In this document: positions 279 through 5,220 of the stretch, in pieces | How positions within the stretch are numbered: the stretch's first letter is position 1 | Layout: each line of letters opens with the position of its first letter | Source: a virus | Taxonomy: Duplodnaviria; Heunggongvirae; Uroviricota; Caudoviricetes | Virus record (IMG/VR): IMGVR_UViG_2778261344_000016 | Span: 1 to 5,220 of that record | Strand: one strand, 5' to 3' | Length of the DNA stretch: 5,220 nt | The notes under the pieces: generated by a model | The model's input: only the letters and a program-made list of their open reading frames with translations | Told to the model about the DNA's origin: nothing | The model's database searches: none | Made by a program: the position numbers and the translations under genes

Positions 279-411
279 TCTTTGGGACTCCTGGCTGATT
301 AAGTATGTCGATAAGGCGTTTCCATCCGTCACGTAATTTACGGGTGATTCGTTCAAGTAAAGATTCGGAAGGGCAGCCAGCAACAGGCCACCCTGCAATG
401 GCATATTGCAT
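247..411 (-). CDS. cIII: CIII (FtsH/HflB inhibitor that stabilises CII), 54 aa
   Basis: The internal Met of ORF 247..483 gives [54 protein letters not shown], near-identical to lambda CIII as I recall it. Strong AAGGAG Shine-Dalgarno about 7 nt upstream of the ATG at 411..409. Confidence 0.85.
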   Translation of the reverse strand: MQYAIAGWPVAGCPSESLLERITRKLRDGWKRLIDILNQPGVPKNGSNTCGYPD

Positions 412-483
412 GGTGTGCTCCTTATTTATACATAACGAAAAACGCCTCGAGTGAAGCGTTATTGGTATGCGGTAAAGCCGCAC

Positions 484-1046: not shown

Positions 1047-1496
1047 TTACTTAACCAATGATGCTGCATATTCGATAAGGTAAAGCTTTGGGGCCAGCCA
1101 AATTTTTAACCAAGTCATATTGGTTACTACACCAATAATAAAAATCCCCCACAGAGTCAAAACTCCAACCAATGGCATGATAAGAAGATTAATATCACCT
1201 TTGCTATCCCAAACCATTGTCGGCCTGTATTTGGGATTTCCTTTCTCCCATGAATATCCTTCATCACCGATTTTACCTGTCTCAACTCTTTGGCACTGCT
1301 TCTTCATAAACCAGAAAACCAGTGGGATTGTTAGAATGGCCATTAATGTTTTAATCAGACTGTCAACCATATTCCATAGCAGCAACTGATGAACAACATC
1401 AGGAATCTGTGCCTGGCTAAATGAAACAGCCGCGTCTATTCCATTACTGGCTTTTTGCAGTAGTTCTACGAGAATCTTGTTTGCTTGTTCTTCCAT
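1047..1496 (-). CDS. Small hypothetical inner-membrane protein, 149 aa, two predicted transmembrane helices
   Basis: GAGGTG Shine-Dalgarno 4 nt upstream of the ATG at 1496. Two hydrophobic stretches (LIKTLMAILTIPLVFWFM and INLLIMPLVGVLTLWGIFIIGVV). It lies between N and ea10, where lambda carries sieB and ral. I do not recognise it as any named protein. Confidence 0.6.
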   Translation of the reverse strand: MEEQANKILVELLQKASNGIDAAVSFSQAQIPDVVHQLLLWNMVDSLIKTLMAILTIPLVFWFMKKQCQRVETGKIGDEGYSWEKGNPKYRPTMVWDSKGDINLLIMPLVGVLTLWGIFIIGVVTNMTWLKIWLAPKLYLIEYAASLVK

Positions 1497-2282: not shown

Positions 2283-2310
2283 AAAACCCGGCTCGGTGGC
2301 CGGGTTTTTC
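2283..2310 (-). terminator. t_imm-like intrinsic terminator ending the cI-cassette transcript
   Basis: Hairpin CCCGGC / CGGTG-type loop / GCCGGG at 2287..2304, flanked by A-runs and T-runs on both sides. It is at the position of the lambda terminator that follows rexB. Confidence 0.7.
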
Positions 2311-3086
2311 TAGGCTACCAGAGACTCAATCCAAGAGTCTCTGGTATGGAATGGCAACACTCGTGCGGTATCATTAAATAGTAGTGATAGTTGCTGTAGC
2401 TCAGGTGTTAACCCATCGCTGTCAACTATTACAAATCTATTGTTTATGTCAGGAACGACCTGACTTAAGTCAACAATCTTCCCAACTGTTGAGTGGGCAG
2501 TATTCCATCCCTTACTGCTGGCAAGGCTTACCGTAAACCCGCGTTTTGGTGGTATTAGTCGAGACTCATTCCTTAGCGTTAACGGAACAGTAATGTTATG
2601 CCCACTAATACCTTTCACTTTTTCCTTTAAAGCTAGTCGCTTCCCAAGCCCTGCTGATTTTAAGTAGCTGATTACACATTTTTCGAACTTATCGTCTTTG
2701 ATCTCAGCATACCAATCAGCAGTTTGGGCGGATGCAAGAATCCCACCACGAATAACATTTGCAGTTACCTGTCCAACGGACGACTCATCTGCCCACGCAG
2801 ATATCTCTCCAGAGTCATTTAATGAAATTCCTTGCGAAGCGAGCGATGACCTGATTAGATCAATTTTCTTTTTAGTCAGGTGGATGCCGCGTGATTCAAT
2901 ATTCATCAATGTATCGCAGTAGTCTGTAACCCTATACTGACCACTCATCTCTTGAACGAATACACTTATCTGCTCACAATCATCGTAGTATGTGAAGGGA
3001 CTAATAACGCGCAGCAACGTGTCGCTCATTGGGTGGCATTCAAACCCGAGCTTAGATATGACTGTTGAACACGTTACATTTCCCAT
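2310..3086 (-). CDS. Hypothetical protein, 258 aa; distal gene of the two-gene cassette in the rexAB slot
   Basis: Long ORF with no internal stops and no long hydrophobic segment. Its ATG (3086..3084) overlaps the 3' end of the upstream ORF by 13 nt, and it has only a weak Shine-Dalgarno, consistent with translational coupling. No family recognised. Not RexB, which is about 144 aa and membrane-embedded. Confidence 0.65.
   Translation of the reverse strand: MGNVTCSTVISKLGFECHPMSDTLLRVISPFTYYDDCEQISVFVQEMSGQYRVTDYCDTLMNIESRGIHLTKKKIDLIRSSLASQGISLNDSGEISAWADESSVGQVTANVIRGGILASAQTADWYAEIKDDKFEKCVISYLKSAGLGKRLALKEKVKGISGHNITVPLTLRNESRLIPPKRGFTVSLASSKGWNTAHSTVGKIVDLSQVVPDINNRFVIVDSDGLTPELQQLSLLFNDTARVLPFHTRDSWIESLVA
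2316..2346. repeat. Perfect 12-bp inverted repeat with 7-nt loop inside the last codons of the 258-aa ORF
   Basis: TACCAGAGACTC (2316..2327) / AATCCAA loop / GAGTCTCTGGTA (2335..2346). It lies just upstream of t_imm on the minus-strand transcript. Confidence 0.6.
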
Positions 3087-3616
3087 GATAGCTGACCTGA
3101 TTTATCTTGATTAGGTAAAGGTGGGCTGCCTTCATATATGATATTAAGCGCCTCGCAAAAATAATTCCAGTAGCCAAAAAAATCATCTGGCTTGATGTTC
3201 GTTTCAAGCTTAAGTGCAATTTCTTCCCCAGCTGATTCGAAGTACATGTGATAGTGAGGACCTCGAGCCACCTCAACAAAATCTGGATGGTTCACTATAG
3301 ATTTATTACGGTGTGGCTTGTTATCCGCAGGGTACGGGTCAAGCGCGTAAATGCGCCTGTCATGAAGAAACATCACAAATGAAATCTTCACTATATCCAC
3401 CCCTTCAACGATAGGAGGACGCCAGTGAAGCATAAATTTTATGCCTGTGATTGGGTTGCCAATTTCATCAAAAGCTTTGAGATCCAATTTAAACCAGATT
3501 GGGGTTCGTCCCTCACTTCCGGTCCATGTAACTCCGCTAAAAGTTACTTTTTTCAAGCGAGTAATAGCTTGGTCAACCTCTTTCTGGGTAGGCTTAAAGT
3601 CGCCTTTTTTAGCCAC
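3074..3616 (-). CDS. Hypothetical protein, 180 aa; proximal gene of the two-gene cassette in the rexAB slot
   Basis: ORF begins with GTG at 3616..3614 (an in-frame stop lies three codons upstream) with a GGTGA Shine-Dalgarno-like element about 9 nt upstream. It starts 46 bp after the cI stop with no intervening terminator, so it is probably co-transcribed with cI from PRM. No family recognised. Not RexA, which is about 279 aa. Confidence 0.65.
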   Translation of the reverse strand: MAKKGDFKPTQKEVDQAITRLKKVTFSGVTWTGSEGRTPIWFKLDLKAFDEIGNPITGIKFMLHWRPPIVEGVDIVKISFVMFLHDRRIYALDPYPADNKPHRNKSIVNHPDFVEVARGPHYHMYFESAGEEIALKLETNIKPDDFFGYWNYFCEALNIIYEGSPPLPNQDKSGQLSWEM

Positions 3617-4382: not shown

Positions 4383-4460
4383 AATCTATCACCGCAAGGA
4401 ATAAATATCTAACACCGTGCGTGTTGACTATTTTACCTCTGGCGGTGATAATGATTGCAT
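4383..4460. promoter_or_regulatory. OR3-OR2-OR1 operators with divergent PRM (leftward) and PR (rightward) promoters
   Basis: OR3 TATCACCGCAAGGAATA (4387..4403), OR2 TAACACCGTGCGTGTTG (4410..4426), OR1 TACCTCTGGCGGTGATA (4434..4450). PR -35 TTGACT (4424..4429) and -10 GATAAT (4447..4452). PRM -35 TAGATA and -10 TAGATT on the minus strand (plus 4406..4411 and 4383..4388). Confidence 0.95.
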
Positions 4461-4476: not shown

Positions 4477-4677
4477 ATGGAACAACGCATAACCCTGAAA
4501 GATTATGCAATGCGCTTTGGTCAAACCAAGACGGCTAAAGATCTCGGTGTATATCAAAGCGCGATCAACAAGGCCCTTCATGCAGGCCGAAAGATTTTTT
4601 TAACTATAAACGCTGATGGAAGCGTTTATGCGGAAGAAATAAAGCCCTTCCCAAGCAACAAAAAAACAACTGCATAA
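4477..4677 (+). CDS. cro: Cro repressor, 66 aa
   Basis: Translation [66 protein letters not shown] is near-identical to lambda Cro as I recall it. TAAGGAGG Shine-Dalgarno at 4466..4473. Confidence 0.95.
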
Positions 4678-4719: not shown

Positions 4720-4731
4720 AACTAATTAAGC

Positions 4732-4765
4732 ACTCATCGAAAGATGAGTATTAGTGATTATTTAC
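4732..4765 (+). terminator. Candidate tR1-like hairpin between nutR and the cII-like gene
   Basis: 7-bp stem ACTCATC / GAAA loop / GATGAGT (4732..4749) followed by an A/T-rich tract. The U-run is interrupted, so it may be a weak or rho-assisted terminator, as tR1 is in lambda. Confidence 0.3.
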
Positions 4766-4783: not shown

Positions 4784-5002
4784 ATGGAACAAACAAGTTA
4801 CAGCAAACTATCACAGCGCGACGTTGATCGCGCAGAAACAGATTTACTTATCAACCTGTCAACGCTTACCCAGCGCGGTCTGGCAAAGATGATTGGCTGT
4901 CATGAATCGAAGATAAGCAGAACGGACTGGAGGTTTATTGCTTCGGTCCTGTGTGCTTTTGGAATGGCATCAGACATCAGTCCGATTAGCAGGGCTTTTT
5001 GA
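4784..5002 (+). CDS. CII-like transcriptional activator, apparently truncated at 72 aa by the IS insertion
   Basis: It occupies the cII position after cro and nutR. The segment DLLINLSTLTQRGLAKMIGCHESKISRTDWR resembles the CII helix-turn-helix region (lambda CII has ...GVDKSQISRWKRDW...). The ORF stops at a TGA (5000..5002) that is the first three bases of the IS terminal repeat, and CII-family proteins are usually about 90-100 aa. Confidence 0.55.
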   Translation: MEQTSYSKLSQRDVDRAETDLLINLSTLTQRGLAKMIGCHESKISRTDWRFIASVLCAFGMASDISPISRAF

Positions 5003-5047
5003 ACCGCCCCGGGTTTCCTGGAGTGAACCGCCCCGGGTTTCCTGGAG
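5000..5047. repeat. Two exact tandem copies of a 24-bp IS terminal repeat
   Basis: TGAACCGCCCCGGGTTTCCTGGAG at 5000..5023 is repeated exactly at 5024..5047. The sequence begins with TG and resembles the terminal inverted repeats of the IS629/IS1203/IS3411 group as I recall them. Confidence 0.7.
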
Positions 5048-5065
5048 AGTATTTTATCTGTGAAC

Positions 5066-5220
5066 TCAGGCTGCCAGATCATTATTTCCGATGGAAGCAT
5101 AATAAGCTTTTTCTGCTTCTGCCGGAGGAATATGGCCCAGCCTTTCCAGCAATCGTCGATTGTTATACCAGTCCACCCACGTGAGTGTGGCCAGTTCCAC
5201 TTCTGCACGGTTTTTCCAGC
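5066..5220 (-). CDS. IS3-family transposase (OrfB, DDE integrase core), C-terminal fragment
   Basis: Reverse-strand translation ends ...WKNRAEVELATLTWVDWYNNRRLLERLGHIPPAEAEKAYYASIGNNDLAA with the stop at 5068..5066. This is a typical IS3-family OrfB C-terminus (WVDWYNN.RL....G..PP.E.E motif). It is in a different frame from the listed ORF 4900..5208. Confidence 0.75.
   Translation of the reverse strand, partial: WKNRAEVELATLTWVDWYNNRRLLERLGHIPPAEAEKAYYASIGNNDLAA

Follow-up and report, generated by a model that had tools for sequence, protein, structure and literature searches.

Gene content of the window

The window (the whole 5220-bp stretch of DNA analyzed here) comprises the immunity region of a lambdoid prophage from Shiga-toxin-type E. 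coli and ends within an insertion sequence (IS) of the IS629/IS1203 type. Its open reading frames (ORFs) and Pfam matches span the early-left and immunity genes (Table 1). The promoter ahead of the lambda-type cro gene and the cII remnant is the predicted driver of both. An Rfam scan of the window returned the cIII thermometer alone, with no match within the coordinates of cII or the IS. All 5220 bases are 100% identical to positions 1258536-1263755 of the E. coli O103:H2 strain 129 genome (NZ_AP038976.1), which allowed the locus to be followed beyond the window. The window itself corresponds to a complete draft contig (NKML01000083.1, assembly GCA_002514585.1), the end of which falls inside the IS.

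Table 1. Features of the window in gene order, with positions, strands, and the basis of each assignment
Feature	Position	Strand	Basis and remarks
kil			First gene in the gene order of the window
cIII RNA thermometer	366-424		Rfam
DUF2528 (ea10-like) gene and gene for a 149-aa protein without an assigned role			After kil and cIII
N antiterminator gene			Intact; after the DUF2528 gene and the 149-aa ORF
Two-gene cassette (DUF1828 protein and DUF6978-like protein)			ORFs intact, at 2310-3616; in the position of lambda rexAB
cI, lambda type			Intact, 237 aa; after the cassette
pR-like promoter, TTGACT-17-GATAAT	4424-4452	+	Consensus scan, 10 of 12 matches; upstream of cro
cro	4477-4677	+	Intact, 66 aa; ORF list; Pfam Cro, E=3e-34
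cII-family remnant, first 72 of 99 codons	4784-4999 (ORF including stop to 5002)	+	Pfam; protein and DNA alignments
Orphan 24-bp tip of the IS right end (IRR)	5000-5023	.	Perfect tandem repeat, period 24, two copies
Right-end 197 bp of a complete 1310-bp IS629/IS1203-type IS	5024-5220	-	Identical to the copy in exo
IRR of the complete IS	5024-5048	.	22 of 25 bases match the left repeat; starts TG
Transposase orfB 3' end, last 50 codons	5066-5220 (stop 5066-5068)	-	ORF list, Pfam, identity

Truncation of cII

The cII-like ORF encodes 72 residues followed by a stop codon. Its product matches the Pfam family Phage_CII (PF05269) with E=3e-24 and a score of 85 bits (cut-off 21) over profile positions 1-71 of 91, and it also matches PHROG 191, “CII-like transcriptional activator” (E=8e-27). 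The nearest intact allele, WP_000438538.1 from strain STEC299, has 99 residues and covers Phage_CII from position 1 to 91 of 91. Aligned as DNA, the window and the STEC299 gene show a single mismatch through 4999 and no similarity from 5000 onward. The tip of the IS terminal repeat, TGAACCGCCCCGGGTTTCCTGGAG, starts at base 5000, and the TGA stop of the remnant (5000-5002) is therefore derived from the IS. Alignment to the intact homologue identifies the 27 missing C-terminal residues as KYALDGLTNKKRPVCKTERSEQIQMEF, a tail that ends in TERSEQIQMEF, a motif common to lambda CII.

The original prediction, made from the letters of the window, held that an IS had truncated the cII-like gene and removed the C-terminus of CII. 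Both points are confirmed by the exact stop of identity at 4999 and the loss of 27 of 99 residues. It also read the TGA as the first bases of the IS terminal repeat. The bases are indeed those of the repeat, but they belong to an orphan tip, and the complete IS begins only at 5024.

We could rule out a CII protein that is naturally short. No homologue ending naturally in ...ISRAF was seen among 322 phage records with a cII homologue, and at least 80% of the 99-residue query was covered in 320 of them. Residue 99 was reached in all 30 homologue rows sampled down the ranking, including 933W, VT2-Sakai, HK97, and lambda. Identity to intact alleles ends at the IS boundary, and the truncation withstands this comparison of lengths. 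As a CII family member, the product retains the profile match and lacks the full length, including the C-terminal oligomerization helix and tail. The cII-like ORF is a gene remnant.

The comparison with lambda CII (PF05269; PDB 1xwr, 1zpq) indicates what was lost. The full-length homologue aligns over lambda residues 9-97 and shares the C-terminal TNKKRP...TERSEQIQMEF motif, with an identity to lambda CII of about 30% overall. Like lambda cII, the remnant lies downstream of cro and under pR. Unlike lambda CII, it stops at the equivalent of lambda A71, and the distal part of helix 4 and the tail are gone. In lambda, work by Kobiler in 2002, Datta in 2005, and Parua in 2010 reportedly placed tetramerization in helix 4 and the proteolysis signal in the C-terminal tail. 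Full-length CII activates pRE, pI, and paQ-type promoters as a tetramer, whereas a lambda CII fragment that stops near residue 69 reportedly forms dimers and fails to bind DNA. Judged by this homology, the remnant is very probably inactive because the distal tetramerization helix and the C-terminal degradation tag have been removed.

Identity of the insertion sequence

In strain 129, the complete IS extends 1113 bp past the end of the window. It is 1310 bp long with TG...CA ends, and its imperfect 25-bp terminal repeats begin and close the element as TGAACCGCCCCGG... and ...CCGGGGCGGTTCA. A complete identical copy encodes OrfA (108 aa; PF01527 HTH_Tnp_1, E=3e-12) and OrfB (295 aa; PF00665 rve, E=2e-26), and scores 312 bits with NCBIfam NF033516, “IS3 family transposase”, for which the cut-off is 160. 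RefSeq annotates the strain 129 element with a programmed frameshift and a pseudoknot. The 50 C-terminal OrfB residues encoded in the window are identical to the end of the 295-aa protein; their Pfam matches to rve_3 and rve_2 lie below the curated cut-offs because the window contains only a fragment of orfB. Consequently, an IS3-family element with the 3' end of its transposase on the minus strand, as originally proposed, is what lies at the locus. Its orientation is opposite to pR transcription.

The same prophage contains a second copy, identical at 1310 of 1310 positions, that splits exo and is flanked by the 3-bp duplication CAG. There are approximately 36 matches to the IS in strain 129. 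Near-identical copies elsewhere are named “IS3-like element IS1203 family transposase” in RefSeq, and IS1203v and IS629 are handled together in the literature; on the basis of these labels and the literature, the IS is here called IS629/IS1203 type. The IS resembles the IS629/IS1203 elements of EHEC and Shigella in its length, TG...CA ends, imperfect 25-bp repeats, and orfA/orfB arrangement with a -1 frameshift. These elements are generally present in many copies per genome, concentrated in prophages, and ordinary copies carry 3-bp target duplications.

Two of the traits that define the IS3 family, orfA/orfB with a programmed -1 frameshift and TG...CA repeats, are present at this locus. The third, a target duplication of 3-4 bp, is not: the IS is bordered by TTT toward cII and by GCC at its far end. 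Sister copies have 3-bp duplications, with ATA, CAC, ATT, ATC, GAG, and ATG found in addition to CAG. The missing duplication reflects a secondary rearrangement and not another IS family. Unlike ordinary IS629/IS1203 copies, the copy in cII thus lacks a target duplication and is preceded by an orphan 24-bp tip.

Deletion beyond the insertion sequence

The original prediction placed the IS between cro/cII and intact replication and late-regulation genes, and attributed the expected defect of the prophage to a block or strong polarity on pR transcription. Strain 129 contradicts both ideas. Past position 5220, the other end of the IS is found without a target duplication and without the rest of cII, O, P, or Q. 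Instead, it joins nucleotide 120 of the terminase large-subunit gene, numbered by an intact copy of the gene in another genome. The RefSeq order is cII “missing C-terminus”, IS3 transposase, and terminase “missing N-terminus”, and the terminase fragment is also marked as frameshifted. The 3' end of cII, O, P, ren/nin, Q, the lysis genes, and nu1 are all absent from the locus. In relatives, the interval from cII to terminase holds a small DUF2740 gene, either O and P or a DnaB-type replication pair, ren, nin, and Q, and Q is followed by cargo genes, holin, lysozyme, spanin, and nu1. From the layouts of 64EVA and FORC 064, we estimate that about 11 kb is missing. The corresponding interval in lambda is approximately 10.8 kb by lambda coordinates.

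The joint between the IS and terminase marks a deletion of about 11 kb, comprising replication, late-control, and lysis genes, in strain 129. This right-hand joint is documented in strain 129 alone, and in the draft isolates its presence is inferred from sequence identity. The counterpart junction that an undisturbed insertion would have (IS left end, TTT, and the rest of cII) was found in none of 5426 complete genomes, and neither the left nor the right junction occurred in any complete genome other than strain 129. A displaced copy of the rest of cII and its downstream genes within strain 129 was not among the best 60 full-length matches, which reached down to 91.5% identity; this is a weak result, since it depends on what the ancestral downstream mosaic was.

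The gene set of a functional prophage (O/P-type replication, Q, lysis, both terminase subunits, and cos) is incomplete in strain 129. We infer that the prophage is dead and would be incapable of replication, late-gene activation, lysis, and packaging, because the replication genes, Q, the lysis genes, the small terminase, and the start of the large terminase are gone. Nor is it likely that the prophage could be packaged from its own cos site with the aid of a helper. Its int and xis genes are intact, however, and excision may therefore still be possible. The expected defect is thus borne out, with the loss of essential genes in strain 129 as its cause. The argument from polarity becomes moot because the genes that would be subject to it are missing, and the loss of CII activity would hardly matter in a prophage that already cannot give phage. 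If pR transcripts were made after loss of the repressor, they would run antisense through the IS into the terminase fragment.

In O157 Sakai, frameshifts, deletions, and IS insertions have rendered the majority of the lambdoid prophages defective (PMC2669165). The prophage described here resembles that pool in being lambdoid, in carrying all three kinds of lesion, and in having type III effector genes at its right end. It is unlike the pool in that the whole block of replication, nin, Q, lysis, and nu1 genes is missing.

Distribution of the lesion

The exact 72-aa product is recorded from many contigs. Among the ten places listed, five share the identical junction of cII, tip, and IS, namely the window and four further draft contigs (L022, L027, L028, and L030), and two of these five contigs are identical to the window over 4.9-5.2 kb. 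The other five places were rejected as examples of the lesion: in four of them an intact cII gene runs off the end of a contig, and in the fifth a scaffold gap interrupts the sequence. With strain 129 included, the left junction and its orphan tip are identical in six assemblies (the window, strain 129, and at least four further drafts). The presence of the same junction in several assemblies indicates that the lesion is passed down within a clonal lineage rather than being peculiar to a single isolate. The dead prophage appears, from these shared sequences, to be carried vertically in the lineage.

Disruption of cII by IS629 is commonplace. In the same cII allele family, other, independent IS629 events lie at nucleotides 125, 204, 249, and 263 and at 53 bp downstream of the gene, and four of these are simple insertions with O and P kept. 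In all, six distinct positions in or just after cII are known, all in one orientation, from a search that joins same-strand pieces only. We considered whether cII might be a special hot spot and rejected this, as a rough estimate did not rise above the known general bias of IS629 for prophages.

The orphan repeat tip

The 24-bp right-end tip occurs twice in perfect tandem, at 5000-5023 and at 5024-5047. Since the 1310-bp IS is complete without 5000-5023, the sequence that abuts cII is an orphan tip and not part of the IS proper. The identical second IS copy, along with the recurrence of the junction in five other assemblies, shows that this pattern is not due to chance.

A search for tip-IS junctions revealed orphan tips ahead of complete IS629-type copies at six other loci, all unrelated and in other strains. 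These tips are 24 bp (L005 and L006), 26 bp (L007, L008, and L009), or 22 bp (L016) long. In L008 and L009, the outer tip has T14 and the inner repeat has G14, and the T14 variant is the normal repeat of other copies (e.g., L013). The outer tip of L016 belongs to the left-end type. Where the outer tip differs from the inner repeat in this way, it must have come from a different IS copy rather than from slippage. Target duplications were absent from all five tip-bearing complete copies, versus present in five of six ordinary copies examined, and each of the five tip-bearing copies lies between truncated genes that are not neighbors. This association between tips and missing duplications argues that self-targeting and deletion are coupled.

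Some ordinary insertions also bear on target choice. Upstream of the insertions in pckA (L020, duplication GAG) and in an IS4 element (L017, duplication ATG), the flank resembles positions 8-26 of the IS629 repeat. IS629 may thus at times favor targets that resemble its repeat, and the repeat itself would be the best such target. The flanks of the cII-region insertions were also compared with the IS repeat and showed no resemblance, so repeat-like targeting does not account for those insertions.

We found no microhomology at either joint between the IS and its flanks or at the boundary of the duplication, and the same was true of the essD joint of L008. At the terminase joint, the native sequence is ...TATCT|GCC, compared with ...GGTTCA at the end of the IS. 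Microhomology end joining was rejected for this joint, as the 3-base extension of the BLAST alignment into the IS end consists of TC and a mismatch.

Discussion

Taken as a whole, the best explanation of the locus is that an IS629-type IS truncates cII next to a deletion of about 11 kb, in a dead and inherited prophage whose orphan tip probably reflects two IS copies. We regard this account as highly probable. Every component of it is already known, and the locus is an example of ordinary IS629-driven prophage erosion in Shiga-toxin-type E. coli. IS629/IS1203 has been described as the dominant IS of these strains and as a main driver of their prophage variation and deletion (PMC4587872, PMC9943667), and RefSeq already annotates the strain 129 locus as a partial CII gene beside an IS3-family transposase.

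The tandem tips are most simply read as the result of one IS629 copy having entered the terminal repeat of a second copy, at nucleotides 22-26. At this locus, a first copy would have inserted in cII, where its tip would survive as 5000-5023, and a second would then have landed at nucleotide 24 of the terminal repeat of the first. The 11 kb or so between cII and terminase may have been lost at the moment of that second insertion, through attack by an IS copy or IS junction located on the same chromosome, or may have been lost later, when like-oriented IS copies recombined with one another, a route that would involve three copies. One of these two routes has to be assumed because recombination between adjacent copies would preserve the target duplication, which is absent here. 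Neither precursor state, the simple insertion at codon 72 or the nested IS pair, was found in the 5426 complete genomes, so the order of events is a proposed one. When the nested intermediate was sought at large (IS left end, GAG, and right repeat from nucleotide 22), only two-piece matches were returned, which were internally deleted IS remnants. The stronger proposal, that the orphan 24-bp tip is the footprint of IS629 inserting at nucleotides 22-26 of an IS629 repeat, with self-targeting on the same chromosome directly giving large deletions without target duplications, is one we hold tentatively, at somewhat short of an even chance.

There are partial parallels for such an event. IS911, another IS3-family member, and IS30 also land in or near sequences that resemble their own terminal repeats, and targeted-insertion studies of IS911 reportedly found insertion beside repeat-like sequence. 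Unlike IS911, the joint here lies 22-26 bp inside the repeat. We found no reports of IS629 inserting in its own repeat in a limited search of the literature.

The duplicated tip could instead be a scar of a single IS copy, left by slippage or end joining, for example through the polymerase of the IS-excision enhancer. The two 24-bp copies in the window are identical, as such copying would predict. The enhancer has microhomology-mediated end-joining activity (PMC9943667) and promotes deletions beside IS629 (PMC9943667, PMC8860574), and O103:H2 strains carry it on an SpLE1-like element (PMC9397093). As in the IS-adjacent deletions ascribed to the enhancer and IS3 transposase, the break falls exactly at the IS end and the IS is kept (PMC9943667, PMC9397093, PMC8860574). 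Unlike enhancer-promoted deletions, however, the joints here have no microhomology, and end joining by the enhancer is consequently unsupported for them. In addition, the outer tips at other loci, being of variant or left-end type, could not be produced by copying the same end. We consider a single-copy scar unlikely.

We also weighed the idea, put forward in the original prediction, that the lesion reflects domestication. Under this explanation, it would have been selected because it locks the repressor and the cI-linked cassette in place as an immunity and defense module of the host. The lesion spares the cI side of the immunity region, and intact cI, cro, N, and cassette ORFs are compatible with a retained module of this kind, as far as gene content can indicate. 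The original prediction also expected the cassette to remain expressed, which its intact ORFs would allow. Both cassette proteins weakly match PDC-M24, a candidate defense system in PADLOC, and the cassette strongly matches two PHROGs without an assigned function. The lesion has also been inherited unchanged in several isolates. However, nothing separates this explanation from neutral decay. In strain 129, exo is split by the second IS629 copy and the annotation marks frameshifts in both the terminase and the tape-measure gene, which fits undirected decay. Retention of the prophage is explained equally well by the effector genes nleG and espJ, which lie at its right end adjoining torT and could account for it alone. 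Elsewhere, IS629 disrupts cII at many positions without loss of downstream genes. Domestication therefore seems improbable to us, and somewhat more so than a single-copy scar.

A simple insertion, with the rest of cII, O, P, and Q lying beyond the window and polarity crippling the prophage, is compatible with the window taken alone, as the contig ends inside the IS. It would also have precedent at other positions in the same cII allele family, where simple IS629 insertions are flanked by 3-bp duplications and O and P remain. However, the sole complete genome identical to the window has no duplication and joins the IS to terminase, the counterpart junction is absent from the complete genomes, and an orphan tip accompanies deletion joints at every other locus examined. 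These observations leave a simple insertion very improbable. Least probable of all, by a slight further step, is an assembly artefact, in which reads mis-joined across a multi-copy IS created the junctions or the 24-bp duplication: 1.3-kb repeats with dozens of matches in the strain are a classic source of such errors, and RefSeq places frameshift marks in neighboring genes, but the left junction and duplicated tip are the same at every base in six assemblies made independently, other laboratories have produced six further genomes with tips of 22, 24, or 26 bp, and the displaced counterpart junction that a mis-join would leave was not found.

With these alternatives set aside, the truncation of cII within an eroded, inherited prophage has a direct consequence for annotation. 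The short cII of the window should be annotated as a gene remnant of a defective prophage and not as a regulatory variant. For transposon specialists, the more interesting feature may be the tip, as its recurrence at deletion joints is a possible marker of a self-targeted IS629 deletion route. If the self-targeting proposal is true, orphan tips of 22, 24, and 26 bp would be a readable scar for one class of IS-driven genome reduction. They would also offer a clue to how the IS629 transposase chooses its targets, which may include sequences resembling the inner portion of the IS629 repeat.

IS629 insertions around cII

Within the family of cII alleles represented in the window, six independent IS629-type insertion positions were found in different strains, in the gene or just past it, and at all six the transposase lies antisense to cII. 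Four of these positions are simple insertions, with duplications of ATC, ATT, CAC and ATA; the insertion at L012 adjoins an inverted gam-bet-exo block. Four contigs carrying an intact cII, from unrelated assemblies and metagenomes, also break within two bases of the IS site of the window. In these four (comparison loci L023–L026), the contig ends at cII nucleotides 216–218, giving rise to spurious “72-aa” partial gene calls; these breaks probably mark an assembly-graph branch where a variable 3' segment of cII starts.

In some cases elsewhere, the flank upstream of an ordinary IS629 insertion with its 3-bp duplication is similar to positions 8–26 of the IS terminal repeat, which suggests that the element occasionally targets repeat-like sequence. 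The flanks of the cII insertions were checked and showed no likeness to the terminal repeat.

Orphan terminal-repeat tips

At seven unrelated loci, a complete IS629 copy is directly preceded by an orphan terminal-repeat tip of 22, 24 or 26 bp. A target duplication was present in none of the five complete examples, all of which are located at deletion or rearrangement joints. The outer tip is sometimes another sequence variant, or even a left-end tip, and these sequence differences indicate that the orphan tip derives from a second IS copy.

The prophage and its immunity region

In E. coli O103:H2 strain 129, exo of the prophage is split by a second, identical IS629 copy flanked by the duplication CAG. 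Frameshifts are annotated in the terminase and tape-measure genes, and the right end, adjoining torT, carries nleG and espJ.

As the match to the Rfam model Lambda_thermo is full-length, early-left regulatory elements are conserved. The 149-aa ORF occupies roughly the position of sieB/ral in lambda; it matched PHROG 3054 (unknown function; E = 4e-64), with no match in Pfam or PADLOC. Ahead of the hairpin between cro and cII lies CGCTCTTTA, at about 4685, and together they make a plausible boxA and boxB of nutR for the non-lambda N protein encoded here.

The two-gene cassette, in the position of rexAB in lambda, encodes two proteins, one DUF6978-like (180 aa) and one of DUF1828 (258 aa), from genes that overlap by 13 bp. 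Both are strong matches to PHROGs of unknown function (2017 and 1960). PDC-M24, a candidate defence system in PADLOC, is matched weakly in each of its two components (E = 4e-4 and 6e-7). In other prophages, variants of the cassette adjoin different repressors.

Features in the window and in comparison loci (L-numbers, own coordinates)
Feature	Locus	Position	Strand	Remark
cIII translational RNA thermometer	window	366-424	minus	88.5 bits
149-aa ORF	window	1047-1496	minus	between N and ea10-like gene
Two-gene cassette	window	2310-3616	minus	downstream of cI
Perfect hairpin	window	4729-4748		ACTCATC-GAAA-GATGAGT
IS629-type insertion, cII region	L014	3151
IS629-type insertion, cII region	L013	3230
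IS629-type insertion, cII region	window	5000
IS629-type insertion, cII region	L012	3275
IS629-type insertion, cII region	L004	4289
IS629-type insertion, cII region	L003	4378
Orphan tip + IS repeat	window	5000-5047
Orphan tip + IS repeat	L005, L006	2501-2548 (each)
Orphan tip + IS repeat	L007, L008, L009	2501-2552 (each)
Orphan tip + IS repeat	L016	1601-1648
Repeat-like upstream flank	L020	1594-1613		in pckA
Repeat-like upstream flank	L017	1600-1619		in IS4
Repeat-like upstream flank	L018, L019
Strain 129 prophage, further damage and right end	L001	4735-6044; 13636-15443
Strain 129 prophage, further damage and right end	L015	2-2580
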